Shown: positions 2,641 to 42,405, counted from the first letter of the stretch. The stretch: DNA of 64,000 nucleotides from Planctomycetota bacterium (GCA_019636245.1 JAHBXX010000002.1:98586-162585); one strand, 5' to 3'. Made by a program: numbers and translations. Notes: generated from the sequence alone by a model not told the origin.

Positions 2641-5181
2641 ATGGCACTCGAACACCCGCGCCTTCTCGCTGCTTCCCTCACCGCGGCCGTTCTCGGCAGT
2701 TCCTGCTCGACTCCGCCGGAGTCGACGACTGGCACCTCGCCCGAGGATGCGCGCACCGGCGATGGCACCGCCCAGGATCCGAAGGCCGGCACGATCGAGG
2801 ATCGCGTCCGCCAGGAACGCCGGGACGCCCTGGTCGCCAACTACCTGGTGACGGCGCAGAACCTGCGCGCGAACGGCAACCTCGAGGCGGCGAAGCGCGA
2901 ACTGCTGAAGGCCAAGGAACTGGCGCCGGGCAACGACGAGGTGCGCACGCTGCTGGCCTCGGTGCAGGCGGAACTCGGCGAGCCCGCCGGCCGCGTCGTC
3001 ACCTACGGCGAGGAGCAGATGCGCCTGCGCCAGATCGGCGAGGAGCGCGCCCGCGCCTCGGTGGCGATGCAGTTGCAGACCGCACGCCAGGCGATGGCGG
3101 CCAAGAACTACGCCGGCGCGCTCGAGGAACTGCGCCTCGCCGGGCTGGCGATCCAGCTCAAGGAGGACTGCGACTGGGGCTCCCTGCCGCAGGACGTCGA
3201 GAGCACGCGCGTCGAGGCCGAACGCCTCTACGACCAGCAGCAGCGCGAGAGCCAGGCCCGCGTCAACGCCGAACTGGCCGAGCGCCTGCGGCAGGAGAAC
3301 GCCGAGATGGAGGCCCGCCGCCGGGCCCAGGTCGATGGCCTGATCCAGGAGTCGCAACGCGCCTTCGAGAGGCGGGCCTTCGGCCACGCGCAGGAGCTGG
3401 CGCAGCGCGCGCTGCAGCTCGAGCCGCAGAACATGATCGCCTTCGAGCTGCGCAGCGCCGCCGTCAAGGCCGGCCGCGACGGCGTCACCCAGGACTACTA
3501 CGAGCAGCGCGCCCGCTCCCTGCGGGCGATGATCGAAGCCGACGAGGACCTGAAGGTGCCGCAGACGGCGATCCTCGAGCTCGACATGGCGACCTGGGAA
3601 CGCGCCAGCGGCCGCGCGGCGCGCAATGCCGTCGCCAAGGCCCTCGACCCGCAGGACCAGGCCGTCTGGGACAAGGTCCGCACCGAGCAGGTCGGCAAGC
3701 TGACCTACACCGAGGAGACGGGCGACTACCTCGAGGTGGTCAAGAACCTGAACCTGATCACCGGCGTGCAGATCCTGACCACGCCCGAGGCCCGCGAGAT
3801 CATCGGCGCCGAGAGCCTCAAGGTCGTCATCGAGCTGGTTGGCTCCGTGACGCTCGAGAACTTCCTGAACCACATGGTCGGCGCCAGCGCGGGCCTCGCC
3901 TGGACGGTGCGCAACGGCGTGGTCGTGATCGGCAACCGCTCGCAGGCGGCCGGCACCATCGTCAGCGACATCTATCCGGTGAAGGACCTGGTGTTCAAGC
4001 GGACCCAGTTCCTGCCGCCGCGCATCAACCTGATCCCCGGCGAGAGCTCGGACGACACGCCGCGCACGGGCAGCGAGGGCGAAGACCCGGTCGCCGGCAT
4101 CGAACTCGGCGACCTGGTCAACAACCTGAAGGAAGCCACCGACCCGAAGTACTGGGAGCAGGAGGGCGTGGCGATCAACGCCGAGGACACCGGGCTGCTG
4201 TCGGTGCAGGCCAGCCCGGAGATGCACGCCAAGATCAAGCAGGTGCTCGACGACATGCGCCGCTTCGCGACGCCGATCGTCACCATCGATTCGAAGTTCC
4301 TGACCATCTCGCGCAACTTCCTCAGCGAGATCGGCATCGACTTCCGCGGCCTCGGCGGGTCCGGCAACAAGGGGACCGTCGCCACCCTCGACGACGTCAC
4401 CAACGGCCTGCAGAACAACGCGTCGCGCGGGCTCGACAACGGCGGCACCGGCGACCCGGCGGCCAACCCGCTCTCCGGCGCGTTCTTCAACGACGGCGCC
4501 GATGGCGACATCCGGGCCCGCACCGAGAACTACTTCGTCAACGATCTCGGTCGCGTGCTGAGCCCGAACGGCGGCCTCACCGCCGGCTGGACCCTGATCG
4601 ACGATACGCAGCTCAACATGATCCTGCGCGCCGTCGAGAAGCGGCAGGACGCCGAGATCATGAACAGCCAGATCCTGTCCGTGCTGAACCGCGAACGCGG
4701 CCACGTGGCGGTGATCAACCAGACGGCCTACGTGCGCGACTTCGACGTCGAGGTCGCCCAGGCGGCCTTCATCGCCGATCCCAAGGTCGACGTGATCCAG
4801 GACGGCATCGTGCTGGACGTGACGCCGGTCATCCACCACGACCGCAAGTACATCACCCTGAACCTGAACCCGACGGTCGCCGAGCTGCAGCGGCCGATCC
4901 CCACGTTCACGACCTCGCTCGCCGGCTCGACGCTGCCGGTCACGCTGCAGTTGCCGAACCTGACGGTGACGAACTTCGCCACCACGGCGAAGGTGCCGGA
5001 TGGCGGCACGGTGCTGATCGGCGGACTCCGCCAGGTGCTGACCCGGGAGCGGCGGGCCGAGGTGCCGGTGCTGGCGCGGCTGCCGCTGATCTCGTTCCTG
5101 TTCAAGCAGGAAGGCACCGCCGACGAGAACCGCAGCCTGATGGTGATGGTGCGCGCGCACATCACCGACGTGCGGCGCTGA
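2641..5181 (+). CDS. Secretin-domain outer-membrane protein (GspD/PilQ superfamily) with N-terminal lipoprotein-like signal, TPR/coiled-coil region and STN-like module
   Basis: The C-terminal part carries secretin hallmarks: IVLDVTPVIHHDRKYITLNLNPTVAEL, VPDGGTVLIGGL...RRAEVPVLARLPLISFLFK, SLMVMVRAHI. The N-terminus AAVLGSSCS is lipobox-like. The first ~300 aa are TPR-like helices. VIELVGSVTLENFLNHMVGASAGLAWTVRNGVVVIG resembles an STN module. Confidence 0.85.
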   Translation: MALEHPRLLAASLTAAVLGSSCSTPPESTTGTSPEDARTGDGTAQDPKAGTIEDRVRQERRDALVANYLVTAQNLRANGNLEAAKRELLKAKELAPGNDEVRTLLASVQAELGEPAGRVVTYGEEQMRLRQIGEERARASVAMQLQTARQAMAAKNYAGALEELRLAGLAIQLKEDCDWGSLPQDVESTRVEAERLYDQQQRESQARVNAELAERLRQENAEMEARRRAQVDGLIQESQRAFERRAFGHAQELAQRALQLEPQNMIAFELRSAAVKAGRDGVTQDYYEQRARSLRAMIEADEDLKVPQTAILELDMATWERASGRAARNAVAKALDPQDQAVWDKVRTEQVGKLTYTEETGDYLEVVKNLNLITGVQILTTPEAREIIGAESLKVVIELVGSVTLENFLNHMVGASAGLAWTVRNGVVVIGNRSQAAGTIVSDIYPVKDLVFKRTQFLPPRINLIPGESSDDTPRTGSEGEDPVAGIELGDLVNNLKEATDPKYWEQEGVAINAEDTGLLSVQASPEMHAKIKQVLDDMRRFATPIVTIDSKFLTISRNFLSEIGIDFRGLGGSGNKGTVATLDDVTNGLQNNASRGLDNGGTGDPAANPLSGAFFNDGADGDIRARTENYFVNDLGRVLSPNGGLTAGWTLIDDTQLNMILRAVEKRQDAEIMNSQILSVLNRERGHVAVINQTAYVRDFDVEVAQAAFIADPKVDVIQDGIVLDVTPVIHHDRKYITLNLNPTVAELQRPIPTFTTSLAGSTLPVTLQLPNLTVTNFATTAKVPDGGTVLIGGLRQVLTRERRAEVPVLARLPLISFLFKQEGTADENRSLMVMVRAHITDVRR

Positions 5182-5308
5182 CGGCCGCCGCCGGCCGACC
5201 CCCTGCAGCCGCGCTGGCGGGGCACCGATCGCAGCCGGCGTCCTCCCGCCGGCCATCGGCCGGCATCGCCCCTTGCCCGGCCCCGGCCGTTGCGCGACAA
5301 CTGGTCGC

Positions 5309-6031
5309 GTGACCAGGCTGCTGGACGCGATCTTCTTCGACATCGACGACACGCTGTTCTCGACGTCCGTTTTCGCCGAGAAGGCGCGGCGCAGCGCCGT
5401 CGAGGCGATGATCGCCGCCGGCCTGCGCGCCGACCGCGACGCGGCGATGCGGGAACTCGACGAGGTGATCGCCGAGTTCTCGAGCAACTACGGCGGCCAC
5501 TTCGACAAGGTCCTCGACCGGCTCGGGCCCGAGTCCACTGGCGGCCACAACCGGGCCGTGATCGTCGCGGCCGGCGTCGCCGCCTACCACGAGACGAAGT
5601 GGCGTGAACTCAAGGTCCACGACGACGTCTACGAGGTCCTGCAGTGGCTCTCGCGCACCCCGCTGGTGCGCGGCGTGATCTCGGCCGGCATCACCATCAA
5701 GCAGGCGGAGAAGCTGGTGCGCCTGGGCGTGCTCGGCTTCCTGACCCCGTCGGCGATCTTCTTCACCGACCAGGTCGGCTTCAGCAAGCCCAACCCCAAG
5801 CTCTACCGCCGGGTCCTGCAGCGCCTGTCCCTGCCGCCCCAGCGCTGCCTCTACGTCGGCGACAACCCGACCCACGACATCGACCCCTGCAACGCGGAAG
5901 GCTGGTGGACGGCGCGCATCCGCCGCGGCGGTCGCCACGCCGACGAGAAGGGCATGACCCAGCCAAGCCACGAGATCCGCGACTTCCACGAACTGCGGAC
6001 CATCCTGCAGCAGCACTACGGCGTGGCCTGA
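5309..6031 (+). CDS. HAD-superfamily hydrolase
   Basis: Motif I is FFDIDDTLF, with SAG...K and a C-terminal YVGDNPTHDI (motif IV). The track start 5273 is a TTG; GTG 5309 places DxDxT about 11 residues from the N-terminus, as usual for HAD enzymes. Confidence 0.82.
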   Translation: MTRLLDAIFFDIDDTLFSTSVFAEKARRSAVEAMIAAGLRADRDAAMRELDEVIAEFSSNYGGHFDKVLDRLGPESTGGHNRAVIVAAGVAAYHETKWRELKVHDDVYEVLQWLSRTPLVRGVISAGITIKQAEKLVRLGVLGFLTPSAIFFTDQVGFSKPNPKLYRRVLQRLSLPPQRCLYVGDNPTHDIDPCNAEGWWTARIRRGGRHADEKGMTQPSHEIRDFHELRTILQQHYGVA

Positions 6032-6040
6032 GCCGCTCCC

Positions 6041-6091
6041 GCGCGCACGAAGCGCGCTCGGCCGAGGTGCCGGCCGTTGGTCCCGGCCGGC
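6041..6091. terminator. Two GC-rich hairpins between convergent genes (possible bidirectional terminator)
   Basis: First hairpin: GCGCGC-ACGAA-GCGCGC (6041-6057). Second: GCCGGCC-N9-GGCCGGC (6069-6091). They lie between the HAD stop (6031) and the actin-gene stop (6104). There is no U-tract, so this is weak. Confidence 0.25.
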
Positions 6092-6103
6092 GCTGCCCGC
6101 ACC

Positions 6104-7177
6104 CTACTTGAGCTGCTCCCAGAAGTCGGCGGGCATGTCGTGGGCGATCTTGAGCGCGCCATTGGCGCCGCCGTAGACCGGCTCCTCGATGCGGATCACC
6201 TTGCCGCCGCCCAGCCGCTCCTTCATCGCCTTCTCGACCGCGGTGTCGAGACCCTTGACCATCGAGCCGCCGCCCGCCAGCAGCACGCGGTTCTTCAGCT
6301 TGGTCTGGAACTGCGGGTCGAACGAGGCGATCAGCTTGTGGATGCCCTTGAGGATCGGGTCGATCAGGATCGCGCAGGCGCCGCGGATCTGCTCGGTCAG
6401 GTCGAACGGCGTCGGCTTGCCGTCGACCGGCAACTCGACGATGCAGCGTTCGGACGGATCGCCGACGAAGCCGTAGCGCTCCTTGATCTCCTTGACCATG
6501 TGGATCGTGAACTGGGCGCCGGGGCAGGTCTCGGCGATGCGCCGCGCGAGTTCCTCGTCGACCGCGTCGCCGGCGATGTCGAACATCACCTGGTCGGTCT
6601 CCTCGGGCATCGTGCCGTGCATGCGGCAGAGGTCGGTCGTGCCGGCACCGATGTCGATCACCAGCACGTCCTCGAGCCAGTCGAGGCCGTAGGCGACCGA
6701 GAACGGCTCGCTGCACAGCATCACCGAGTCGACGTGCGCGCGAGCCGCCTCGATGATCGCCTCGCGATTCTTGACCGACGCTTCGGCGGGCGCCCCGATC
6801 ACGCAGTAGATCAGCTCGTCCTTGCGCGGACGCGCGAGCCGGATCGCCTCGCCGATCAGGTCCTGGGCGGCCTTCAGGTTGGCCTTCGCCTCGGCGTCCT
6901 TGGCGGCGTCGCCGGTGTACTTCAGCACCCCCTTCTCGAGCGGCTTGTAGAGCTTCAGCGACAGGCGCTTGTCCAGCGCCTCCTTGCCGAACAGCACGTC
7001 CTTCTTCAGCAGCTTCATGCTGACGACGTCCTTCGGGTAGCCGACCATGGAGTAGACCGTTTCGCGCACGCCATTGCTGGCCGACACGGAGGTCCGGGAG
7101 GTGCCTAGGTCCATGCCGATGTAGAGCACACCGTGGTCCTTCTTCGGCGCTTCGGGCGTCTGCTTCGTCTCGCTCAT
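6104..7177 (-). CDS. MamK-family actin-like ATPase
   Basis: It resembles MamK as I recall it along the full length: YIGMDLGTS (phosphate 1), MVGYPKDV, VLVIDIGAGTTDLC (phosphate 2), LLAGGGS (adenosine), C-terminal PADFWEQL (MamK PPQYWRQL). A purine-rich GAGAGAAG lies upstream of the ATG. Confidence 0.85.
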   Translation of the reverse strand: MSETKQTPEAPKKDHGVLYIGMDLGTSRTSVSASNGVRETVYSMVGYPKDVVSMKLLKKDVLFGKEALDKRLSLKLYKPLEKGVLKYTGDAAKDAEAKANLKAAQDLIGEAIRLARPRKDELIYCVIGAPAEASVKNREAIIEAARAHVDSVMLCSEPFSVAYGLDWLEDVLVIDIGAGTTDLCRMHGTMPEETDQVMFDIAGDAVDEELARRIAETCPGAQFTIHMVKEIKERYGFVGDPSERCIVELPVDGKPTPFDLTEQIRGACAILIDPILKGIHKLIASFDPQFQTKLKNRVLLAGGGSMVKGLDTAVEKAMKERLGGGKVIRIEEPVYGGANGALKIAHDMPADFWEQLK

Positions 7178-7202
7178 CGTCTTCTCTCGTTCGGTTTCGG
7201 CG

Positions 7203-7994
7203 TCAGGCCTTCTTCTGCAGCCGCAGGTTGGCCTTGAAGATCTCCGCCATGAGTTCCTTCTTCTTGCCGGCCTGGGTGTCGGCAGGGTCCACGCCCTGCA
7301 CCTCGCGGTAGATCGAGGAAATGCCCCCGTCCAGGCTCTTCATCGCGGCGACCGTCTGCAGGCGCTTCTCGGTCTGGTCCAGCGACTCGTTGAGCTTCTT
7401 GATGCGGCGCTGCAGCGTGCCGACCTCCCGGTCGTGCAGGGCCTTCCTGGCCTCGTCGGCCGACTGCCGCTCGACGGTGACGATGTCCATCACCAGGGCC
7501 ATCACCCGCTCCTCGGCGTCGACGATCGAGGCGCCGCCGGTGGCCGCGAGCGCGCGCAACACGTCGCGCACCTTGGCGGCGATCGCGGCGTTCTCGCCCT
7601 CGTAGCGCGTCGCCATCGCCAGCGCGCCCTCCTCGAGCTTGAGCTCCAGGGCCCGCTGCTGCGCCGACAGGTCGCGGCGCAGCTGGTCGACCTCCTCCTC
7701 GACCAGCTCCTTCTGCCGCTCGATCTCCGTCTTCTGCCGCTGCAGGTCTTCGTTGGTGCGCAGGAGCCGCAGGAACTCGGCCTTGGTCGCATCGGCGACC
7801 GCCTCGCGCTCGACCCCGACCAGGCGCGACTTCAGGCTGCGGTGCACCGCCGCCTCGATCAGCGCGATGATGCGATCGATGCCGAGCACGTTGACCTGCT
7901 GCACGCCCTGCTTCTTCAGGTTGTCCAGCGAGGTGCGGAACGACATCTGCCGCACCGCGTCCTTCAGCGTCTCCTTGAAACCCGCCACGCTCAT
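7203..7994 (-). CDS. Coiled-coil protein of unknown function (basic amphipathic C-terminal tail)
   Basis: 263 aa. There are long charged heptad-like stretches (QRQKTEIERQKELVEEEVDQLRRDLSAQQRALELKLEE; RRIKKLNESLDQTEKRLQ) and a tail MAEIFKANLRLQKKA. The ATG overlaps the upstream stop (ATGA), and the gene ends 25 nt before the actin gene. Confidence 0.7.
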   Translation of the reverse strand: MSVAGFKETLKDAVRQMSFRTSLDNLKKQGVQQVNVLGIDRIIALIEAAVHRSLKSRLVGVEREAVADATKAEFLRLLRTNEDLQRQKTEIERQKELVEEEVDQLRRDLSAQQRALELKLEEGALAMATRYEGENAAIAAKVRDVLRALAATGGASIVDAEERVMALVMDIVTVERQSADEARKALHDREVGTLQRRIKKLNESLDQTEKRLQTVAAMKSLDGGISSIYREVQGVDPADTQAGKKKELMAEIFKANLRLQKKA

Positions 7995-8764
7995 GCCTCC
8001 TCGTCCGAACGTGGTTCGTAGGCGAGGCGGCGGTCGGAATCGGGGTCGTGCCCTCGCAGTTCGGTGACGAAGCTGCCGAGCACGTTCGCGCCCATGTCCT
8101 GCAGGGTGCGCAAGGCCTCGCGGGTCTGCTTCTTCAGCGAGCGCTCCAGGCGTACCACCAGCAGCGTGCCGTCGACGCGCGCCGCGAGCACGCCCGCGTC
8201 GGTCGACGGCAGCACGGGCGGCGTGTCGACGATCACGTACTGGAACCGCTCCTTGAGCCGGTGCAGCAGTTCGTCCAGGCGCGACGAGCTCAGCACCTCG
8301 GCCGGGTTCGCCACCCGGGTCCCCGGCCCCAGCAGCATCAGCTGGCGGTAGCCCGCCGGCCGCAGCACCTTGTCGACCGTGGTGCGGCCGAGCAGGACGT
8401 CGGCGAGCCCCGGCTCCGGGTTCAGGTTCAGGTGCCGCTCGCAGCCGGGGCGGCGCATGTCGGCGTCGACCAGCACGACCTGCTGCCGTTCCAGTTCCGC
8501 CATCGCCATGGCGAGGTTCAGGGCCGAGACCGTCTTGCCTTCGTCCCGGACCGCGGAGGTCACCACCAGCGTCTTCGGCTCCCCGTCGGGGTTCATCGCC
8601 ACGAGGCGGTTCCGCAGCGCCCGCACCTGCTCGGCCCGGTAGCCCGACGGGTCGTGGAAGAGCACCAGGTACGGACTCACGGCCTGGTCGACGATGACGA
8701 CCATGTCCTCGGGCCGATCGGGCATGCGGCCGGCGTCGTTGGCTGGCTTGTGGCGGCGGAACAT
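7991..8764 (-). CDS. CpsD/CapB/Wzc-type (BY-kinase-like) P-loop ATPase, stand-alone cytoplasmic domain
   Basis: Walker A is TSAVRDEGKT, Walker A' VVLVDADMRRP and Walker B YVIVDTPPV. I trimmed the track ORF (to 9160) to ATG 8764 because the upstream 132 codons are Arg/Pro/Ala junk. There is no Tyr cluster at the C-terminus (a single Y in RRLAYEPRSDEEA). Confidence 0.75.
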   Translation of the reverse strand: MFRRHKPANDAGRMPDRPEDMVVIVDQAVSPYLVLFHDPSGYRAEQVRALRNRLVAMNPDGEPKTLVVTSAVRDEGKTVSALNLAMAMAELERQQVVLVDADMRRPGCERHLNLNPEPGLADVLLGRTTVDKVLRPAGYRQLMLLGPGTRVANPAEVLSSSRLDELLHRLKERFQYVIVDTPPVLPSTDAGVLAARVDGTLLVVRLERSLKKQTREALRTLQDMGANVLGSFVTELRGHDPDSDRRLAYEPRSDEEA

Positions 8765-8996
8765 CGCGTCGCGTCGCGGCGGGGGATCTTTCGGATCGGC
8801 GGCGACGGCTACTTGTTCAGGACATGGAGATCGGCGGCGGACGGGAGACGCGATGCAGGACGGTCGACCGGCGCCGCCGATGGCATGGAGCCGGCGCCGC
8901 CAGTGGCCGGAGGGTGCCCCCGGCCGTGGGACCGGCAGTCTACACGCCCCTGCCGGCCGATCGCCAACGGCCACCGCGGCGCGACCTGACGCGGGT

Positions 8997-10637
<1,641 letters not shown>

Positions 10638-10715
10638 CGGCGTAGCGTGGCCGCGAGGGCCGGGCGGCGCAAGCGGCGCCGGCGGGCGGGCGTTCGCGTG
10701 GTGCCGCATGGCGGG

Positions 10716-11387
10716 TCACTCGTCCCGCAGCTGCTGCAGGACCTCGCGTCGCTGCTCCGGATCCCGGCGGAACACGCCGGCGAACCACGTCGTCTCGGTC
10801 GCCGACCCGGTCTTGCCGACCCCGCGCGTCGTCATGCAGTGGTGCTCGGCGACGATCCGCACGGCGACGCCGCGCGGCTGCAGCGCCCGCTCGAGCGCGC
10901 CGCCGATCTGCGCGGTCAGACGTTCCTGGACTTGCAGTCGCCTGGCGAAGACGTCGACCAGCCGGGCCAGCTTGCTGAGGCCGACGACCCGCTCGGCGGG
11001 CAGGTAGGCGACGGCGGCATGGCCGCGGAAGGGCACCATGTGGTGCTCGCAGTGGGAGAGGACCTCGATGCCGCGGACCACCACGACGTCCTCGTAGCCA
11101 TCGAGCTCGCCGAACGTCTTCGCCAGCAGGGCCTCGACGTCGGCGCCGTAGCCGGCGAAGAACTCGCGGTAGGCGCGCAGCACCCGCGCTGGCGTCTCGC
11201 GCAGGCCTTCGCGGTCCGGATCCTCGCCGATCCAGGCCAGCAAGGTGCGCACGGCCGAGAGCGCCTGCTCCTGGGTCGGTCGCACGTCGGGTCCGGCCGG
11301 CAGCTGCACGGCGCGCAGGCGGGGCGGTTGGGCATCGGCGACAGCGGTCGGCTCCAGCCGGTTCCGGCGTTCGGGCAGCGCGTGCAT
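10716..11387 (-). CDS. folE: GTP cyclohydrolase I
   Basis: LRETPARVLRAYREFFAGY, SHCEHHMVPFRG, VGLSKLARLVDVFARRLQVQERLT and EHHCMTTRGV are classic FolE motifs. The start is ambiguous (ATG 11387 or GTG/ATG 11450). Confidence 0.9.
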   Translation of the reverse strand: MHALPERRNRLEPTAVADAQPPRLRAVQLPAGPDVRPTQEQALSAVRTLLAWIGEDPDREGLRETPARVLRAYREFFAGYGADVEALLAKTFGELDGYEDVVVVRGIEVLSHCEHHMVPFRGHAAVAYLPAERVVGLSKLARLVDVFARRLQVQERLTAQIGGALERALQPRGVAVRIVAEHHCMTTRGVGKTGSATETTWFAGVFRRDPEQRREVLQQLRDE

Positions 11388-11522
11388 GCGGCGACGTTCG
11401 CCAACGACGCGGAGCCGGATGCACGGCGGTCTGGCCCGCAGCCGCGCCACGGCGAGGTCACCGGCCTCGCTGGCGCGCGACCGCCCTCGGCGAGCCCACC
11501 GCCGGCCGCCGCCCGCTGCCGT

Positions 11523-12830
11523 TCAGCGATCGTGCCGCACTTCGCGGGCCGCACGCTCCGCCAGCTCCGCGAACACGTTGGTCCGCTCGAGAGGCAACTG
11601 GAACGCATCGGCGAACCTCGTCATGTAGTTGCACCAGGCGACGTGGTAGACCAGATCGGCGGCGCGTTCGGCGCCGAACGTCGCCGCCAGCAGCGCACGA
11701 TCGTCGGCCGAGAACGACGCCGGTGCACGGCTGAGCCGGTGCGCCGCGGCGAACGCGATCCGCTCCTCGGGAGCGAACGTCGTCCACTCGCCCCGCGCCA
11801 GGCGTTGCGCCAATCCCTCGACATCGTTCTCCGGCAGGCCCGCGACCGCGAGCAGCATTTCGCTGTGGCCCATTCAATAGAAGCAGTCGTTGGTGCGTGT
11901 CACGACCCAGAACACCGAGTTGGCGAACACGCGATCGAGGTTCGCTTCGGCCTGGAAGGCATACAGGCAGGCGAACCACGCCCGCGTCAGTCCCGGCTGG
12001 TAGCCGTAGCCGACACGGCTCCAGACCACCAACTCCGATTGCCGTCGCTCGCGTTCGGTGAGGCCTTGCAGCCGCTCGTCCTCGGGCAGCGGCATCCGCA
12101 AGGGCCGCTGCCGCTGGCCATCCTTGGCCGCGAGGAGGTCCGCCCAGCGGCGCTCGCCCCACGCAGGCAGGTCCACCACGGGCGAACCACCGGAGCCGGC
12201 CGGCGCGGCCACGGGCAGGCGCCGCGTCGAGGGCCGTGCGGCCGTTCCCGCCGCCGCCAGCAGCGCCGCCGGCACGATCGGCGTGGCATCGTGCACGCCC
12301 AGGCCGAACACGATGCGGCAGAGGAAGTTCGCATAGGCGATCGAATGCACGATCGCGGTGGCGCGCTCGGCCCCGAACTGCGCCAGCAGCGCCGCGAACT
12401 GCGCCTCGGGGATCGCATGGCCGGCCTCGGTCAGCTGGCGCGCGAACTCGACGGCGACGGTCTCGGCGTCGGGCCCCGGGTCGGCAGCAGGCCCGGCCGT
12501 GGCCGCCCGGCGCAGGTCGGACTCGGCCGCCGCCGCGACGGGATCGCAACCCAGCGCACGCGCGACGGTGAGCCGGAGGCGGGCGGCAAGTTCGTTGCCG
12601 AGCGGGTTGTGTTCCCGATGCAAGCCGTCGAGCGCCAGCAGGTTCCTGGTCGTCGCCGGCAACGGATCCGCGAGCACACCGGCCCAGGCGGGCAGGGCGA
12701 CCGCCGCGGGCAGTCCCAGCCGCGTGGCTGCAGGCACAGGAGATGCCGGGGACATGGTCTGGCAGGCAGGGAACGCCGTCGCGACGGCGATCAGGATGGC
12801 GGCGACAGCGCGCACGAGGCCCGAGAGCAT
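11523..12830 (-). CDS. Secreted AhpD/carboxymuconolactone-decarboxylase-like protein with an in-frame TGA at 11874-11876 (candidate selenocysteine CxxU, otherwise a disrupted gene)
   Basis: Track ORFs 11874..13127 and 11523..11873 are in the same frame, separated only by TGA: NDCFY-TGA-MGHSEML. That is the CxxC...H redox motif position of the CMD/AhpD fold. The N-terminus is trimmed to ATG 12830 (MLSGLVRAVAAILIAVATAFPAC, a signal peptide). GC3 is high on both sides of the TGA. Confidence 0.55.
11838..11853 (-). other. Candidate SECIS-like hairpin downstream of the in-frame TGA
   Basis: The minus-strand RNA is GCUCGC-GGUC-GCGGGC: a 6-bp stem including one G-U pair, with an apical GGUC loop. 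It lies 21-36 nt 3' of the UGA. GC-rich hairpins arise easily by chance in this DNA. Confidence 0.3.
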
Positions 12831-12870
12831 AGGGCCCAGGGTCGCGCCGCGCCTCGGAGCATGCCTGGCC

Positions 12871-14400
12871 TCACACCGCCAGCACGCCGACCGCGCGCTC
12901 GGCCGCGGCCACCAGCGTGCCGTCGACGACCAGCTGTTCCGCGGTGGCGAGGTCGGGCGCCAGGTAGCGGTCGCCGTCGAGGCCGCGCACGCGCCGCCGC
13001 AGGGCCCGGTGGGCTGCTTGCACGCCCGCGCCCGGCCGCAGCTTCCCGCCCAGGTCGAGCCCCTGCGCCGCGCACAGGAACTCGATGCCGAGCACCTTCG
13101 CCGTGTTGGCGACCACTCGCTCGGCATGCCGCGCGGCCGTGACCCCCATCGACACGTGGTCCTCGCGGTTCGCCGAGGTCGGGATCGTGTCGACGCTGGC
13201 CGGATGCGCGAGGCTCTTGTTCTCGCTGGCCAGCGCCGCCGCGACCACCTGCGGGATCATGAAGCCGCTCTCCAGCCCCGGATTGCGGGCCAGGAACGGC
13301 GGCAGCCCCGAGATGTCCGGGTTGACGAGCTGCTCGATGCGGCGCTCGCTGATGTTCGCCAGCGTGCTGACGGCGATGGCCAGGAAGTCGAGCGCCTGGC
13401 TCACCGGCTGGCCGTGGAAGTTGCCGCCGCTCACGACTTCGCCGTTCGGGAACACCAGCGGATTGTCGGTCACCGAATTGGCCTCGGTGACCAGCACCTC
13501 GACCGCGAAGCGGATGCCGTCCTTCGCCGCGCCGTGCACCTGGGGCGCGCAGCGCAGGGAATAGGCGTCCTGCACCTTCGCGCAGTCGGCATGGCTCGGC
13601 ACGATCCTGCTGTCGCGCAGCAGCGCCCGCAGGTTCGCCGCCGTGGCCTCCTGCCCCACGTGCGGCCGCAAGGCGTGCACACGCGCCTGGAACGGCTTCT
13701 CGCTGCCGCGCAGCGCCTCGACCGTCATCGCGCAGGCGACGTCGGCGGCCTTGGCCACCCGCAAGGCGCGGTGCAGCGCGAGGCAGCCGATCGCCGTCAT
13801 GATCTGCGTGCCGTTGATCAGGGCCAGGCCCTCCTTCTCGCGCAGCTGCAGCGGCTCGCGGCCGAGGCGCCGCAGGGCGGCGGCGCCGGCAAGACGCCGG
13901 GAGCCGTCCCAGACCTCGCCCTCGCCGAGCAGCGGCAGCGCCATGTGGCTGAGCGGCGCCAGGTCGCCCGACGCTCCGACGGATCCCTGGCTCGGCACCA
14001 CCGGCACGTAGCCGCCGTTCCACAGCGCCATCGCCTGCTCGAGCAGGGCCGGGCGCACACCGGAGCAGCCGAGCGCCAGGTTGTGGATGCGCAGCGCGAA
14101 CGCGAGCCGGGTCTGGTCGGGCGGCAACGGCTCGCCGACGCCCGTCGCATGGCTCAGCAGCAGGTTACGCTGCAGCTGCGCCAGCTGCTCGTCCGGGATG
14201 CGCACCCCCGCGAGCTTGCCGAAGCCGGTGTTGATGCCATACATCGTCGCGCCGTCGCGGACGGCGCCCTCGACGACGGCCCGGCTGGCCGCCACCCGCT
14301 TGCGGGCCGCCGGGGACAGCGCGATGCGCGCCTCGGGGCGGCTCAGTTCGACCAACGTGGAGAGCGGGAGCGTCGGGTCGCCGAGCTGGATCCTGGCCAC
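12871..14400 (-). CDS. hutH: Histidine ammonia-lyase
   Basis: YGINTGFGKLA and the MIO-forming GSVGASGDLAPLSH motif are present, along with NPLVF and REDHVSMG. The start is a GTG. Confidence 0.93.
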   Translation of the reverse strand: MARIQLGDPTLPLSTLVELSRPEARIALSPAARKRVAASRAVVEGAVRDGATMYGINTGFGKLAGVRIPDEQLAQLQRNLLLSHATGVGEPLPPDQTRLAFALRIHNLALGCSGVRPALLEQAMALWNGGYVPVVPSQGSVGASGDLAPLSHMALPLLGEGEVWDGSRRLAGAAALRRLGREPLQLREKEGLALINGTQIMTAIGCLALHRALRVAKAADVACAMTVEALRGSEKPFQARVHALRPHVGQEATAANLRALLRDSRIVPSHADCAKVQDAYSLRCAPQVHGAAKDGIRFAVEVLVTEANSVTDNPLVFPNGEVVSGGNFHGQPVSQALDFLAIAVSTLANISERRIEQLVNPDISGLPPFLARNPGLESGFMIPQVVAAALASENKSLAHPASVDTIPTSANREDHVSMGVTAARHAERVVANTAKVLGIEFLCAAQGLDLGGKLRPGAGVQAAHRALRRRVRGLDGDRYLAPDLATAEQLVVDGTLVAAAERAVGVLAV

Positions 14401-34808: not shown

Positions 34809-37800
34809 TCAGGCCCACAGCACGAGGCCGCGCACCTTCGCGTCGTGCCCGCCGCGCGCCGGCACCCGCACCCGCATGCCGTGCTGGTAGTGCCCGGCGA
34901 GTTCGACGCGGTAGCCGCCGTCGAACTGGTGCACGGTGCCGCTCTTCGGCCCGCGGTGCTGCAGCCGCACCACGACCGTCTCCTGCTGGCTGCCGGCCTC
35001 GCCGCGCGTCACCACCAGTTCGACCAGCACGTCGCCGGGCTGCAGCGGCCCGAGGTCGACCTCCAGGTGCACGTCGAGGTGCTGGCCGACCTTGAAGTCC
35101 TGCAGCTCGACGGTCGTGGCGGCCGTGATCCGGACCTTGTCGAACCCGGCGCGCACGCGCAGGAAGTCCTTGGCGAGGTCGCGTGCCGGCGCCTTCTTCG
35201 CCGCCTGCTGGGCGAAGTAGTTCGCCGCCAGCGGCCGGTACGCGGACTCGAGGTAGTCGGTCACCATGCGGTCGGTGTTGAACACGGTCGGCACGCTCTC
35301 GAGGTCGTGCACGACCAGCTCCATCCACGCCGCCGGCAGCCCGTCCTTGTCGCGCGAGAAGTAGCTCGGCACCACCTCCTCCTCGAGCAGGCGGTAGAGC
35401 GCCGTCGCGTCGGCCTGGTTCTGCAGCTCGTGGCTGCCATAGACCTGCGAGCCGCCGATCGTCCAGCCGTTGCCGCCGTCGGCCGCCTCCGGCCACCAGC
35501 CGTCGGCGATCGACAGGTTGAGCACGCCGTTGGCGGCCGCCTTCATGCCCGAGGTGCCGCTGGCCTCCTCCATGCGGGTCGGGGTGTTGACCCAGACGTC
35601 GACGCCCTGCACGAGCGCCCGCGCCAGCGCCATGTCGTAGTCCTCGAGGAAGAACACCCGGCCGATGAACTCGGGCGATCGCGCGATCTGCACGATCGAT
35701 TTCATGATGTCCTGGCCCATGCGGTCGCGCGGGTGCGCCTTGCCGGCCACGAGCAGCCGGACGGGCCGCTCGGGGTTCGACAGGATCTTGCGCAACCGCT
35801 CGGGATCGGTGAACAGCAGGTGCGCGCGCTTGTAGGGCGCGAACCGCCGCGCGAAGCCGAGGTAGAGCGCCTTGTCGTCGAGACCGGCGAGCATCGCGCT
35901 GAGCACGACCGGGCTGTCGCCACGGGCGTGGAAGTGCCGCGTCAGCGCGTCGCGGGCCGCGTCCAGCATCAGGCCCTTGTTGGCCTGGCGCACGCGCCAG
36001 AGGTCGCGCCGCGGCACCTTCGCGGCGCGGGCGAAGTCCTGCGGCCGGATGCCGCCGTCGTCGCCGCGCAGCAGCCGGGCGATGCCCGCGTGCGTCCAGG
36101 TCGCCAGGTGCACGCCGTTGGTGATCGCCGCGACCGGCACCTCGTTCTCGAGCAGGCCGGGCCAGAACGCATGCAGCAGCTTCTGCGACGCCTTGCCGTG
36201 CAACTTGCTGACGCCGTTGACGAAGCCGGCAAAGTTCATCGCCAGGTAGGTCATGTTGAACTCCGAGGTGCCGCCGCTCGCCTGGCCCAGCGCGAAGAAG
36301 CGGTCCCACGGCAGGCCGACCCACTCCTCGGCGTCGCCGAAGTAGCGGCGCATCAGGTCCTCGGCGAAGCGGTCGTGGCCGGCCGGCACCGGCGTGTGGG
36401 TCGTGAACAGCGTCGTCGCCGCGACGTACTCGCGGGCCGCCTCGAACGACAGGCCCTCGCCGCGCACCAGTCGGCTCGTGCGCTCGAGCGTCAGGAACGC
36501 CGCGTGCCCCTCGTTCATGTGGTAGACCGCGGGCCGCAGGCCGAGCGCCCGCAGCAGGCGCACGCCGCCGCGGCCGAGCACGATCTCCTGCTGGATGCGG
36601 GTCTCGACGTCGCCGCCGTAGAGGTTGCGCGTGAGATCGCGGTCCTCGGGCCGGTTCTGCGTCACGTTGGCGTCGAGCAGGTAGAGCGGCACGCGACCGA
36701 CCATCGCCCGCCAGGCGCGCAGGAACACCTCGCGGCCGGGCAACGGCACCGAGATCTCGAGCGGGCGGCCGTCGGCGGCGCGCACGACCTCGAGCGCCAG
36801 CTGGCGCGGCCGGTTCTCGAGGTCGGCGGCGATCTGCTGGCCGTCGCTCGACATCTGCTGGCTCATGTAGCCGAAGCGGTAGAACAGGCCGACGGCCACC
36901 AGCGGGATGCCGAGATCGCTGGCGGACTTCAGGTGGTCGCCGGCGAGGATGCCGAGACCGCCGCTGTAGATCGGCAGCGAGTGGTGCACGCCGAACTCGG
37001 CCGAGAAGTAGGCGACCGGGTGCGCGCCGTTCAGCGCCGGACCGTCGCCGCCGTGCAGCTGCAGCGGCTGTTGCGCCGTCGCCATGTAGTCGTCGAAGCG
37101 CTTGCCGACGTCCTGCAGCCGGCGCAGGAAGTTCTTGTCCCTGGCCTTGGTCTCCAGCGCCTCGAGACCGACGCTCTGCAGGAAGGCGACCGGGTTCTCG
37201 CGGCTGTGGCCGAAGCCCGGCGCCAGCTCCTCGAACAGGCCGCGCACGCCGCCGTTCCACACCCACCAGAAGTTGCGCGCCAGCCGTTCGAGGCCGCGCA
37301 GGCTCTGCGGCAGCGTCGCCGAGGCCTCGAACGGCGACAGCCGCGGCGTCGTGCCGGAACCGGGCGACGGCAGCGCACGGCGCGGCAGCCGGAACTGCAC
37401 CACGCCGCTGGTGCTGCGCAGCTGCACCGCGTGCAGCGCCTGGTCGTAGGCGCGAACGTAGTTGGCGTACAGATCGCGCCAGGCGGTGCGGCCGGCGGCG
37501 GCGCGACAACGTTCGCGCAGGCCGGGTCCGGCGTGGCCGGCGGCGAGCTGAGCCTCCAGCGCCTCGACCAGCGACACGACGACGTCCTGGTAGGGCACGC
37601 GCTCCCGGCGCAACACGGTGATGCCGTCGGCGGGGCCGAGGCCGGCGCCGACCGCCCAGCGGCCGAAGCCGGCGAGGTCGGTGGTGATCGTCGGGATGCC
37701 GACCGCCAGCGCCTCCTGCGGCGTGTATCCCCACGGCTCGTAGTACGACGGGTAGACGCCGACGTCCATCGCCGCCAGCACCGACTCGTACTCGCGGCCG

Positions 37801-39035
37801 AACAGGCCGTCGTCCGGGCGCAGGTAGATCGGCACCTGCACGACCCTGGCCCGGCTGCCCAGGCGGTTGTCGATGCCGATGCGCTTGCAGTGCGCGTGCA
37901 CCGGATCGTGTTCCTCGTCGAACAGGTTGTGCGTGCAGAGGCCGATCGGCGTGTTCGCCGGCGCGCCGGCGAGGCGGTCGATCAGCTCGGCGCGCATGCC
38001 GGAGTTGCCGGCCGGCACCAGCAGGAAGGCGACCAGCCGCCGGCCCTTGCGGCCCTGCAGCTGCGCCATCGCATCGAGCAGCAGCTCGATGCCCTTGTTG
38101 TGGAACTCGTAGCGGCCGGCGAGGGCGACGAACAGCGCGTCGCCGACGTCCTCGCCGAGCACCGCCCGGGCCACGCGCTCGAGCTGGCCGCGCATCGCGG
38201 CGCGATCGCCGGCGGCCAGTTCGTCGACGACGGCGAGGTCGATGCCGTTGGGCAGCAGCGGATCGACCTTGCGGCCGTGCAGCAGTTCGGCTTCGGCGGC
38301 GGTGATCGAGCTGACGGTCGTGAACACGTCGGCCTTGCGGGCGCAGACGCCCTCGATCGAGTGCTTGGCCTGCACGCCGTGCGAGCGGGCCAGGTCCTCC
38401 ACCGTCTTGCCGCCGAGGCCCTTGTCGGGCGCCGCCGGGTCGGGCGTGATGCCCAGCGACGCCAGCGCCCGGCCGAGCATCGTCGCGTGGGTCGTGAACA
38501 CGGTGCCGATGCTGGGGATGCGCTCCTGCAGGTGCAGCAGCGCCGCGCCCGTCATCCACTCGTGCGCCTGGACCACGGCACGGCGGTGGAACGGCGCCAG
38601 GAACTCCTCCCACCAGCGCTCGATCACCATGCCGGCGGCGACCGAGAACAGCACCGGTTCGACGTAGTCCCAGTCGCCGGCGATCGAGTCGACCTTGTGG
38701 CGCTCCCACAGGCCGGACAGGATGCCGTTCTTCTGCTCGAACAGGCCGGAGAAGCCGACCAGGATGCAGCGCGGCCGGCCGGGGATGCGCCAGCGGCCGA
38801 CCCGGATCGGCACACCGAGCTGGCGGCAGCTCTGGGCGAAGTCCTCGAAGCCGGGCTCCTCGTCGAACGGCGGCTGGTGGCCGGCCGCCAGCAGCTGCGG
38901 CCCGATCGTGATGTAGTCGTCGCCGAAGCGCTCGACCGCCGTCACCGCCTTGCTCGACAGCACCGTGTGGATGCCGCCGACCTTGTTGCACACCTCCCAA
39001 CTGATCTCGAACAGCTGGTACGAACGTTCCTGCAT
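34809..39035 (-). CDS. Fusion protein: GT3-type glycogen synthase (N) + DUF3417/GT35 alpha-glucan phosphorylase (C)
   Basis: The N-terminal ~600 aa, LFEISWEVCNKVGGIHTVLSSKA...AHEWMTG...FTTHATMLGR...YPSYYEPWGYTPQE, is eukaryote/Bacteroidota-type GT3. The C-terminal ~800 aa has LARNFWWVWN (DUF3417), YFSAEFG...LPIYSGGLGILAGDH, HMNEGHAAF, FTTHTPVPAGHD, GKAHP.D, EASGTSGMKAA (PLP Lys). It is one uninterrupted frame of 1408 codons from ATG 39035. Confidence 0.85.
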   Translation of the reverse strand: MQERSYQLFEISWEVCNKVGGIHTVLSSKAVTAVERFGDDYITIGPQLLAAGHQPPFDEEPGFEDFAQSCRQLGVPIRVGRWRIPGRPRCILVGFSGLFEQKNGILSGLWERHKVDSIAGDWDYVEPVLFSVAAGMVIERWWEEFLAPFHRRAVVQAHEWMTGAALLHLQERIPSIGTVFTTHATMLGRALASLGITPDPAAPDKGLGGKTVEDLARSHGVQAKHSIEGVCARKADVFTTVSSITAAEAELLHGRKVDPLLPNGIDLAVVDELAAGDRAAMRGQLERVARAVLGEDVGDALFVALAGRYEFHNKGIELLLDAMAQLQGRKGRRLVAFLLVPAGNSGMRAELIDRLAGAPANTPIGLCTHNLFDEEHDPVHAHCKRIGIDNRLGSRARVVQVPIYLRPDDGLFGREYESVLAAMDVGVYPSYYEPWGYTPQEALAVGIPTITTDLAGFGRWAVGAGLGPADGITVLRRERVPYQDVVVSLVEALEAQLAAGHAGPGLRERCRAAAGRTAWRDLYANYVRAYDQALHAVQLRSTSGVVQFRLPRRALPSPGSGTTPRLSPFEASATLPQSLRGLERLARNFWWVWNGGVRGLFEELAPGFGHSRENPVAFLQSVGLEALETKARDKNFLRRLQDVGKRFDDYMATAQQPLQLHGGDGPALNGAHPVAYFSAEFGVHHSLPIYSGGLGILAGDHLKSASDLGIPLVAVGLFYRFGYMSQQMSSDGQQIAADLENRPRQLALEVVRAADGRPLEISVPLPGREVFLRAWRAMVGRVPLYLLDANVTQNRPEDRDLTRNLYGGDVETRIQQEIVLGRGGVRLLRALGLRPAVYHMNEGHAAFLTLERTSRLVRGEGLSFEAAREYVAATTLFTTHTPVPAGHDRFAEDLMRRYFGDAEEWVGLPWDRFFALGQASGGTSEFNMTYLAMNFAGFVNGVSKLHGKASQKLLHAFWPGLLENEVPVAAITNGVHLATWTHAGIARLLRGDDGGIRPQDFARAAKVPRRDLWRVRQANKGLMLDAARDALTRHFHARGDSPVVLSAMLAGLDDKALYLGFARRFAPYKRAHLLFTDPERLRKILSNPERPVRLLVAGKAHPRDRMGQDIMKSIVQIARSPEFIGRVFFLEDYDMALARALVQGVDVWVNTPTRMEEASGTSGMKAAANGVLNLSIADGWWPEAADGGNGWTIGGSQVYGSHELQNQADATALYRLLEEEVVPSYFSRDKDGLPAAWMELVVHDLESVPTVFNTDRMVTDYLESAYRPLAANYFAQQAAKKAPARDLAKDFLRVRAGFDKVRITAATTVELQDFKVGQHLDVHLEVDLGPLQPGDVLVELVVTRGEAGSQQETVVVRLQHRGPKSGTVHQFDGGYRVELAGHYQHGMRVRVPARGGHDAKVRGLVLWA

Positions 39036-39037
39036 GG

Positions 39038-40246
39038 TCAGTGCTGCTTCTGCTTGGCTGCGACCTTCCGGACCTGCGCGCGCAGGTCGTCGAGAGCGGT
39101 CATCAGGGTCACGAACGCCGCGTGCGGCGAGTCGTAGGGACTGAAGTACTCGTGCACCTCGGCATCGCTGTGATGCTTCGTCGCGACGTAGTAGACGTGG
39201 TCGGAAGTGGTGAAGTGGCGCCAGATCGCCAGCAGTTCGGGGCGCTCGGCGGCGGCGGCGAGCACCTCGGACCGCAGCGCGTAGATCGCCTCGTTGGCCG
39301 CGACCTGCATCGGGTTGCCGAGCCAGGCCGACAGGTTGCGCTCGACGTCGGCCCACGACACCGGGTTCGGGATGTCCAGTTCGCCGATCGCCTCGCGCTC
39401 GGCGGCCACCTGCGCCGGCGTGCGGAAACGGAACCCTGGCTCCTGCAGCACCTGCTCGGGCAGGTGCTGCATGAAGTCGAGGATGCCGGTGTGCGCGCCC
39501 TGGTGCTCGCCGAAGGTCTCGTAGTCCATGAACAGACCGATGAACTGGGCCGGCGGAGGCACGTCGTGCAGCCACCCGGCGTAGGTATCGGCGAACAGCG
39601 GGTAGGAAGGCCACTTCCGGTTCGAGAACCGGAAGGCGATGTCGTCGGACAGCGAGTAGCTGCGCAGCAGCAGCTTGAGCCGCGCGCACCCCTTCGGCCG
39701 GTACGGCACCTGCGGGCTGCGCCAGCCGAGCAGCCGGTCGGCGCCCTCGCCGAGCATGCACTCGAAGCCGAGGTCCTCGACCTTGCGGCAGATGCGGTTG
39801 TCGAGGATCAGCTCGGTGTCGCGGAACGACGTCGGCGCGCCGAACAGGTCGGTGACGGTCCGGCGCTGCAGCTCGACCTGGTCGGCGAATTCGTCGAGGT
39901 CGGTGACCGCGGCGAGGCTGTGCTGGCTGGTCTCGCACAGGAACTCGACGTTGCCGGTCTCGGCGAGATCGACGAAGCTCTGCAGGGCGTCCGGCACCCA
40001 GTCGCGCAGCTGCTGGATCACCGTGCCCGACAGCGAGAAGGCGCAGCGGAACTGGCCGTCGGTGCGCTCGATCGCCGCCAACAGCAGGCGGTTCATCGGC
40101 AGGTAGCAGCGCTCGGCGACGCGCTCGGCGACCAGGCGGTTCAGCGGCGCGTCGAAGTAGTCGAGCTTGCGGATGCGATCACCCGGCTTCCACTTGCGCA
40201 GTCGGTAGGGCTGGTGCACCTGGAAGTAGAAGACCACGTCGATCAC
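39038..40246 (-). CDS. Glycoside hydrolase family 57 protein
   Basis: VVFYFQVHQPYRL, FSLSGTVIQQL, EFLCETSQHS and MDYETFGEH are GH57 conserved regions. GTG 40246 overlaps the upstream TGA (GTGA). Confidence 0.85.
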   Translation of the reverse strand: MIDVVFYFQVHQPYRLRKWKPGDRIRKLDYFDAPLNRLVAERVAERCYLPMNRLLLAAIERTDGQFRCAFSLSGTVIQQLRDWVPDALQSFVDLAETGNVEFLCETSQHSLAAVTDLDEFADQVELQRRTVTDLFGAPTSFRDTELILDNRICRKVEDLGFECMLGEGADRLLGWRSPQVPYRPKGCARLKLLLRSYSLSDDIAFRFSNRKWPSYPLFADTYAGWLHDVPPPAQFIGLFMDYETFGEHQGAHTGILDFMQHLPEQVLQEPGFRFRTPAQVAAEREAIGELDIPNPVSWADVERNLSAWLGNPMQVAANEAIYALRSEVLAAAAERPELLAIWRHFTTSDHVYYVATKHHSDAEVHEYFSPYDSPHAAFVTLMTALDDLRAQVRKVAAKQKQH

Positions 40247-42249: not shown

Positions 42250-42405
42250 CGAGATCGGAACCGGCGGGCGGCTGCGGGCGGTGCAGCCTACGTCGGACCC
42301 GGGCGGTATCAACGACCGATCACGGGCGGATTCCCGGACGGGATCTGTCCCCCGCCGCGCGGCAGTTGCATCCTTGTGCCACCTCGCCCGGCGGCCACCG
42401 GGCCG

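Follow-up and report, generated by a model that had tools for sequence, protein, structure and literature searches.

A BY-kinase-type ATPase, a coiled-coil protein and a saltatorellin-type actin form a candidate cytoskeletal operon in Planctomycetota

The 64,000-nt window analysed here is a single stretch of a Planctomycetota genome (GCA_019636245.1 JAHBXX010000002.1:98586-162585). Within it, three consecutive minus-strand genes encode a soluble P-loop ATPase of the bacterial tyrosine kinase (BY-kinase) type (8764..7991, 257 aa), a conserved coiled-coil protein (7994..7203, 263 aa) and an actin-like ATPase of the MamK family and saltatorellin type (7177..6104, 357 aa). We propose, with moderate confidence, that the three products are functional partners in a dedicated cytoskeletal module, the saltatorellin operon. 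The actin is already known, while the operon and the two partner proteins appear to be undescribed: in the literature searched, we found neither a BY-kinase paired with a bacterial actin nor an account of the gene neighbours of saltatorellin.

The case for a module starts with gene order. Related loci were collected by scanning one genome per GTDB species with a narrower alignment of the coiled-coil protein, a broader alignment being too diverse, and the loci of the best 80 of 126 hits were taken; further loci were added via look-ups with the individual proteins, and the presence of the trio was checked by tblastn. The ATPase, coiled-coil and actin genes were found in identical order and on the same strand in 81 of 84 distinct related loci. 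The remaining three end at contig ends, and there were no counter-examples. Compared with the window proteins, the actins are 65-93% identical, the ATPases 50-87% and the coiled-coil proteins 39-89%. In most loci the junction between the ATPase and coiled-coil genes lies between -4 and +8 nt, and the median gap between the coiled-coil and actin genes is 33 nt. Among loci with enough flanking sequence, a urocanase gene is found upstream in 36 of 66, a HAD hydrolase gene downstream in 51 of 59 and a secretin gene in 43 of 50. In the most divergent loci (L060, L078-L080, L083, L086, L087, L124, L125), these usual neighbours are replaced by unrelated genes and the trio is kept, even where the coiled-coil proteins are no more than 39-47% identical and the flanks are wholly different. 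The trio is therefore the invariant unit, which supports an autonomous module and defeats chance adjacency. The initial annotation of this DNA had called the trio a self-contained operon and had named a lack of synteny in relatives as evidence to the contrary; the trio is instead constant while the flanks vary between sub-clades.

Within the window, the ATG of the coiled-coil gene lies over the TGA of the ATPase gene (ATGA), and 25 nt separate the coiled-coil gene from the actin gene. The raw open reading frame (ORF) of the ATPase stays open to 9160 and would overlap the urocanase gene at that length; the start at 8764 is supported by the lengths of the orthologues (246-270 aa) and by an N-terminal Met-Phe-Arg common to most of them. 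Upstream of the trio is a 232-nt spacer (8765..8996), presumed to be the promoter region, which is bounded by the stop codon, at 8997, of the urocanase gene hutU (8997-10709, same strand). In relatives with gene tables, a spacer of ~80-310 nt precedes the ATPase gene, and the upstream gene differs. We could not find a sigma-70-like promoter site in the spacer, and an Rfam scan of 5500-9500 gave a chance-level match only, with no RNA element in the spacer. On the other side, a plus-strand HAD hydrolase gene (5273-6031) converges on the actin gene, leaving 72 intergenic nt (6032..6103) at the end of the transcription unit. The coordinates, strands, overlap, gap, spacer and convergent gene all agree with those first reported. 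The exception is the downstream "GC hairpins": in a 79-nt RNA folded from this intergenic region, the hairpins were no more stable than those of shuffled sequences (z = -0.63), and no convincing terminator could be found. The GC content of the window is 65-78%, and PADLOC returned no defence-system match.

The family placement of the actin rests on hidden Markov model (HMM) scores and pairwise identities. Against the NCBIfam MamK model NF040964 it reaches 404 bits, a borderline pass of the cut-off of 400 (E=4e-121, residues 18-356 of 357 aligned), while it scores 201 bits for BeeR, 55 for MreB and 13.6 for ParM. In the PDB, MamK (5jyg/5ljv) is matched at E=2e-73 over residues 17-356, compared with 8.5e-41 for BeeR (8r2n) and 1e-11 for MreB (1jce). 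By HMM and by solved structures the protein thus groups with MamK and not with MreB or ParM, in agreement with its original description as a MamK rather than an MreB, ParM or FtsA type, and the motifs quoted in that description (DLGTS, VGYPKDV, VIDIGAGTTDLC, LAGGGS and PADFWEQL) are present in the translation. Identity to the MamK of Magnetospirillum magneticum AMB-1, a single reference sequence reconstructed from a PDB alignment, is 37% for the window actin and 36-42% for the clade actins, compared with 65-93% within the clade orthologues. A 16-residue N-terminal extension stands ahead of the aligned core. No record identical to the window actin turned up in an exact-sequence look-up. The window protein ends in FWEQLK; most of the 75 clade orthologues end in [FY]WEQLK, and many of their N-termini read MTD. 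The actin is also the most constrained member of the trio, with 45% of its positions at least 97% conserved across 75 species, the corresponding shares being 20% in the ATPase and 11% in the coiled-coil protein. Records name the orthologues inconsistently, many using "rod shape-determining protein (MreB)" and others "MamK family actin-like protein", because their score is right at the NCBIfam MamK cut-off.

Several known systems contain related actins. MamK cooperates with MamJ and MamY or with coiled-coil Mad proteins (PMC12748827), and the trio shares with the MamK systems of Magnetospirillum (MamJ/MamY) and Desulfovibrio magneticus (Mad20/23/25/26/28) the actin subfamily and the presence of a coiled-coil or adaptor partner. 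Unlike these systems, it lacks a magnetosome gene cluster: as had been noted for the window, none of its scanned genes has a magnetosome domain, and mam-type domains were equally absent from the annotated flanks of six relatives. We found no precedent in MamK systems for a BY-kinase-type partner, and for the coiled-coil protein there is no match to a Pfam or NCBIfam family or to a solved structure, a comparison that did not take in the MamJ, MamY and Mad sequences themselves. The second-best match, BeeR, is a three-stranded tubular actin of Verrucomicrobiota that is marked by a disordered N-terminal domain (PMC11929497) and is likewise a MamK-related actin of non-magnetotactic bacteria of the Planctomycetes-Verrucomicrobia-Chlamydiae group; the window actin, however, is far under the BeeR cut-off (530) and closer to MamK.

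The closest parallel is saltatorellin. The window coiled-coil protein is 100% identical to KF830_01210 of a "Planctomycetes bacterium" metagenome-assembled genome (MAG), and the close homologues of all three proteins are all from Planctomycetota MAGs. One of these, a CL500-15 MAG (L051), carries the trio with an actin 83% identical to that of the window, and CL500-15 belongs to OM190 (PMC5607371). A 2019 preprint on the "Saltatorellota" by Wiegand et al. described the MamK-like actin saltatorellin in three shape-shifting isolates with a GC content of 67-70.5% and found that the protein of S. ferox forms filaments when expressed in E. coli and M. gryphiswaldense; the clade of that preprint equals GTDB UBA1135/UBA8108/GCA-002687715 and SILVA OM190 (bioRxiv 10.1101/817700). 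The preprint treats the actin alone, and the words "operon" and "neighbour" are absent from its text (bioRxiv 10.1101/817700). Its saltatorellin cloning primers encode MTDITTD (forward) and ...YWEQLK-stop (reverse) (bioRxiv 10.1101/817700); the primer sequences themselves were found in 0 of 87 loci. The evidence places the window in a Planctomycetota lineage of the Saltatorellus/OM190/UBA1135 clade, and its actin is taken to be a saltatorellin orthologue because of the [FY]WEQLK and MTD termini and the CL500-15/OM190 link, the S. ferox side being compared via the primer-encoded termini only. Both saltatorellin (S. ferox Poly30) and the window protein are MamK-like actins of non-magnetotactic, high-GC Planctomycetota; the [FY]WEQLK end corresponds to YWEQLK, and the MTD-type N-termini of many clade members resemble MTDITTD. 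The MamK-like actins of shape-changing planctomycete relatives that the initial annotation had mentioned can thus be identified with saltatorellin.

Some contigs carrying the trio bear other taxonomic titles ("Luminiphilus sp.", "Candidatus Kuenenia stuttgartiensis", "candidatus Brocadiaceae", "Singulisphaera sp."; L047, L072, L011, L027, L035, L039, L043, L045, L062). Their actins are 71-91% identical to that of the window, which suggests mis-binned or mis-labelled MAGs.

The first gene of the trio encodes a protein whose affinities are with the BY-kinases. It passes the TIGR01007 BY-kinase domain model (118.9 bits, cut-off 108.05). Its top HMM score is 159 bits for TIGR03018, the XrtA-associated soluble autokinase (cut-off 230), and it stays under the cut-offs of the specific equivalogs TIGR03018, EpsG, Wzc and Etk. 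Among solved structures, CapB, BceF, VpsO, Etk and Wzc are matched at E=1e-21 to 1e-28, compared with ~1e-7 for MinD and FleN, the best BY-kinase relatives being ahead by ~20 orders of magnitude in E-value. The Walker A/A'/B set of CpsD/CapB/Wzc kinases, which had been recognised at the outset, is thereby borne out: the Walker A motif reads SAVRDEGKT (residues 70-78), the Walker A' motif VDADMRRP and the Walker B motif YVIVDTPP. Across 80 orthologues, the positions E75-G76-K77-[ST]78, D100-x-D102-x-R104-x-P106 and Y176-h-h-h-D180-T-P-P are invariant or nearly so, and the BY-kinase-typical N-terminal helix R43-A-E-Q-x-R48-x-L-R-N52 is conserved. This pattern at Walker A, A' and B speaks for purifying selection on catalysis.

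The window ATPase ends in an acidic C-terminal tail, RLAYEPRSDEEA, with a single Tyr; the consensus of the tail is RG-x-DP-x-SD-x-RL-A-Y-E, followed by acidic residues. The last 20 residues contain one Tyr in 65 of the 80 ATPases, two in 9, three in 1 and none in 5, and tails with two or three occur in the most divergent relatives. The single Tyr had been contrasted with the C-terminal cluster of other BY-kinases. It is indeed what the window protein carries, but with a Tyr kept in 75 of 80 orthologues it is better described as a minimal tail than as a loss. Judged from its sequence, the ATPase has the appearance of a BY-kinase that is catalytically active and whose phospho-acceptor tail is minimal, not of a degenerate ATPase.

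BY-kinases normally need a transmembrane modulator of the CapA/Wzz type. The kinase domain of the window protein starts near residue 32, with no membrane domain, and no gene for a Wzz/GNVR/CapA-type modulator could be found among the scanned window genes or in annotated relatives. Within the same scope, no genes for Wza, for Wzx/Wzy (flippase and polymerase), for glycosyltransferases or for polysaccharide export lie near the trio. The lack of a transmembrane activator and of Wza/Wzx/Wzy-type neighbours, first remarked upon for the window, thus extends to its relatives, in none of which did the annotated ATPase gene sit beside Wzz/CapA or an exopolysaccharide (EPS) export locus. The ATPase nevertheless resembles the split BY-kinases (CapA/CapB, TkmA/PtkA and the XrtA-associated EpsG) in its soluble kinase domain, Walker A/A'/B motifs, ..AEQ.R.LRN.L helix and Tyr tail, and also in the tight placement of its gene beside a second gene, possibly for a modulator. 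It differs from them in that this neighbour encodes a cytoplasmic coiled coil and not a Wzz-type protein, that the tail has one Tyr (rarely two or three) and not a cluster, that polysaccharide genes are lacking, and that an actin is the third member of the operon.

The coiled-coil protein belongs to no Pfam or NCBIfam family and has no DNA-binding domain match. A profile search of the PDB returned generic coiled-coil noise only, and a fold search with its model against the PDB gave no significant match. The AlphaFold model, built with 38 homologues, is all-helical, with long helices at 61-151 and 157-221 and short terminal helices (mean predicted local distance difference test score 73, predicted template modelling score 0.35). 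Searched exhaustively, 1.84 billion cluster representatives yielded 753 homologues with E<=1e-3, of which 313 reach E<=1e-10; most homologues are ~260 aa long and align end to end, and the 313 representative clusters at the stricter threshold define a sizeable uncharacterised coiled-coil family. Between a conserved N-terminal region and a conserved C-terminal motif, its members have a long and variable helical hairpin, and they end in an amphipathic helix. The N-terminal motif is RGV..V.V.G.DRI..LIE.AV, or more fully RGV..V.V.GLDRI..LIE.AVNRTL in a 45-member alignment. The C-terminal motif is G-I-x-S-I-Y-R-x-V-Q-G and the terminal helix LM..IF.ANL.LQ, the consensus of the same alignment being LERRI.KL...D.GIASIYR.VQGL...K..LM..IF.ANL.LQ. 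In these 45 members, columns G30, R197, K200, G224, S227, G234, K245 and N256 are invariant and Y229 and F253 nearly so, while the central helical region is variable. The initial annotation had described the protein as mostly a charged coiled coil with a basic amphipathic tail; it is helical, and the tail sequence MAEIFKANLRLQKKA is present in the translation, but the invariant N- and C-terminal motifs mark it as a family of its own and not merely a generic coiled coil. The strict conservation of N256 and F253 would favour a specific contact with a protein over non-specific binding to the membrane. We also looked for fusions between the ATPase and the coiled-coil protein, and found no ATPase domain in 10 longer coiled-coil homologues.

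These features can be combined into a model. The ATPase and the coiled-coil protein are predicted to form a complex, because their genes overlap as in split kinase/modulator pairs and because the kinase is without its usual membrane modulator; the coiled-coil protein would replace the transmembrane modulator of the CapA/Wzz type. Cytosolic activation is known for the Bacillus BY-kinase PtkA, which can use activators such as MinD and SalA. The ATPase would cycle through ATP binding and autophosphorylation of its conserved C-terminal Tyr, with the actin or Tyr229 of the coiled-coil protein as possible further substrates. Coupling of this switch to the actin filament would fall to the coiled-coil protein, whose terminal amphipathic helix would contact the membrane or another partner. 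Filament assembly or anchoring could in this way be gated by ATP binding and tyrosine autophosphorylation, and the module would set where and when saltatorellin filaments assemble in shape-changing bacteria that lack FtsZ.

Several points weigh against a dedicated partnership, which is deduced from the genes. A distant subgroup of the coiled-coil family (~30% identity, 36 metagenome loci, L088-L123) has no adjacent ATPase or actin gene and variable neighbours, so that the protein has no intrinsic need of these partners. Five of the 80 ATPases have no Tyr in their last 20 residues, so that autophosphorylation may not be essential. The hutU gene and the HAD-secretin block are also often conserved, and part of the synteny of the trio could thus reflect slow rearrangement in the clade. 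Lastly, the loci compared leave out the cultured shape-shifters S. ferox, Engelhardtia and Rohdeia.

The stand-alone members also mean that the coiled-coil family is wider than the trio, into which it was probably recruited. The variable neighbours in their loci include, for example, a conserved convergent gene encoding a ~413-434-aa product and, in several cases, a gene for a ~950-aa coiled-coil protein.

A fuller version of the model would be an actin controlled by tyrosine phosphorylation, in which a soluble BY-kinase with a cytoplasmic coiled-coil activator switches filament assembly or anchoring by phosphorylating itself plus the adaptor or the actin. In this complete form the proposal is tentative and, in our judgement, rather unlikely. 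If true, the phospho-switch would lie behind the changes in shape, the amoeboid movement or the division without FtsZ that have been described in the clade, BY-kinases would be extended past polysaccharide control to a dedicated cytoskeletal role, and the trio would be without precedent in bacteria as a dedicated kinase-adaptor-actin module and a functional counterpart of the way in which tyrosine kinases control actin in eukaryotes. So far, nothing other than saltatorellin has been proposed to account for the shape-shifting and the amoeba-like movement of bacteria in the Saltatorellus clade. The place of saltatorellin in a strictly conserved trio supplies two partner proteins and, in ATP and tyrosine phosphorylation, a switch that can be tested. 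Its function thereby becomes accessible through heterologous co-expression and reconstitution in vitro, although the organisms themselves lack genetic tractability.

The same three proteins could alternatively serve in cargo positioning or segregation, with the ATPase as a ParA/MinD-like switch, the coiled-coil protein as an adaptor (like ParR, ParB, McdB or MamJ) and the filament moving or anchoring an organelle, an inclusion or DNA; we regard this as improbable. BY-kinases share their P-loop class with MinD and ParA, and weak matches to MinD, FleN and McdA were obtained (E ~1e-5 to 1e-7), but the signature lysine of ParA/MinD is absent from the ATPase. The corresponding position (72) is V, I, G or M, and never Lys, in the 75 sequences tallied, the MinD and ParA HMM scores are far under their cut-offs, and it is the BY-kinase motifs, including the Walker A' DxDxR, and the Tyr tail that are conserved. 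MamK does position organelles with adaptor proteins (PMC12748827), but across the loci compared there were no co-conserved cargo genes, and the locus is chromosomal with housekeeping flanks in all species. For DNA as the cargo, the pairing of an actin with an adaptor resembles ParM-ParR, and the trio is like ParMRC and Alp7AR in having a bacterial actin and a small adaptor in one operon. Unlike those systems, it is clade-wide, confined to a single locus and equipped with an extra kinase-type ATPase. ParMRC-like segregation was rejected: a search of 8700-9050 turned up short chance repeats rich in GC but no iterated repeats of a centromere-like kind, the ParM score is negligible, and the coiled-coil protein has no recognisable DNA-binding domain.

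A further reading, very improbable beside the cytoskeletal module, makes the ATPase an ordinary BY-kinase of polysaccharide export that might serve a nearby secretin/ExbBD block; its adjacency to an actin would in that case mean nothing functionally. The block in question lies on the plus strand and converges on the trio: it comprises genes for ExbB (234-1082), two ExbD proteins (1187-1714 and 1720-2256), a secretin of 846 aa (2641-5181) and the HAD hydrolase already mentioned. A secretin with ExbB/ExbD is near the trio in the 43 of 50 loci counted above, but the block is convergent and missing from the most divergent loci, where the trio persists. TIGR01007 and TIGR03018, the top HMM matches, are polysaccharide-associated autokinase families, yet modulator, Wza, flippase, polymerase and glycosyltransferase genes are lacking nearby, among the scanned window genes as in annotated relatives, and the ATPase gene overlaps or abuts that of the coiled-coil protein. 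An EPS kinase placed here by chance was accordingly rejected, given a trio kept with varying flanks and no polysaccharide genes. The ExbB-ExbD-ExbD-secretin-HAD block might have a functional link to the actin module. The secretin is itself unusual, with a long N-terminal region without a family match and its pairing with ExbB/ExbD.

That the actin is a magnetosome relic, a true mamK remaining after the other mam genes were lost, is scarcely credible and was rejected even though it reaches the NCBIfam MamK cut-off and magnetosome clusters are reported in some Planctomycetes MAGs (mentioned in PMC12748827), since its identity to MamK is far below that within the clade, no annotated flank has mam-type domains, and its strong conservation argues for an active, clade-wide function.

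Beyond the trio and the convergent block, the window genes scanned included hutU, hutH, ApaG, Tpx, a thioredoxin-TPR protein, UbiA, UbiE, glycogen-metabolism genes and a multihaem cytochrome. The histidine utilisation genes hutU and hutH (12871-14400) are both on the minus strand; between them are folE (10716-11450, read from its translation only) and two ORFs without a family match (11523-11873 and 11874-13127). A minus-strand ORF of 1709 aa (34809-39938) combines glycogen synthase, glycosyltransferase, DUF3417 and glycogen phosphorylase domains, and is either a fusion or an artefact of ORF merging in high-GC DNA. The plus-strand ORF at 40381-43656 (1091 aa) has a GlgC-like nucleotidyl transferase domain at residues 690-1084; its N-terminal ~690 aa have no family match, and the ORF is probably over-extended. 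Finally, a 550-aa protein encoded on the minus strand at 44865-46517 has weak multihaem cytochrome matches (MtrC/MtrF-like, cytochrome c3/c7) that are under the curated cut-offs.

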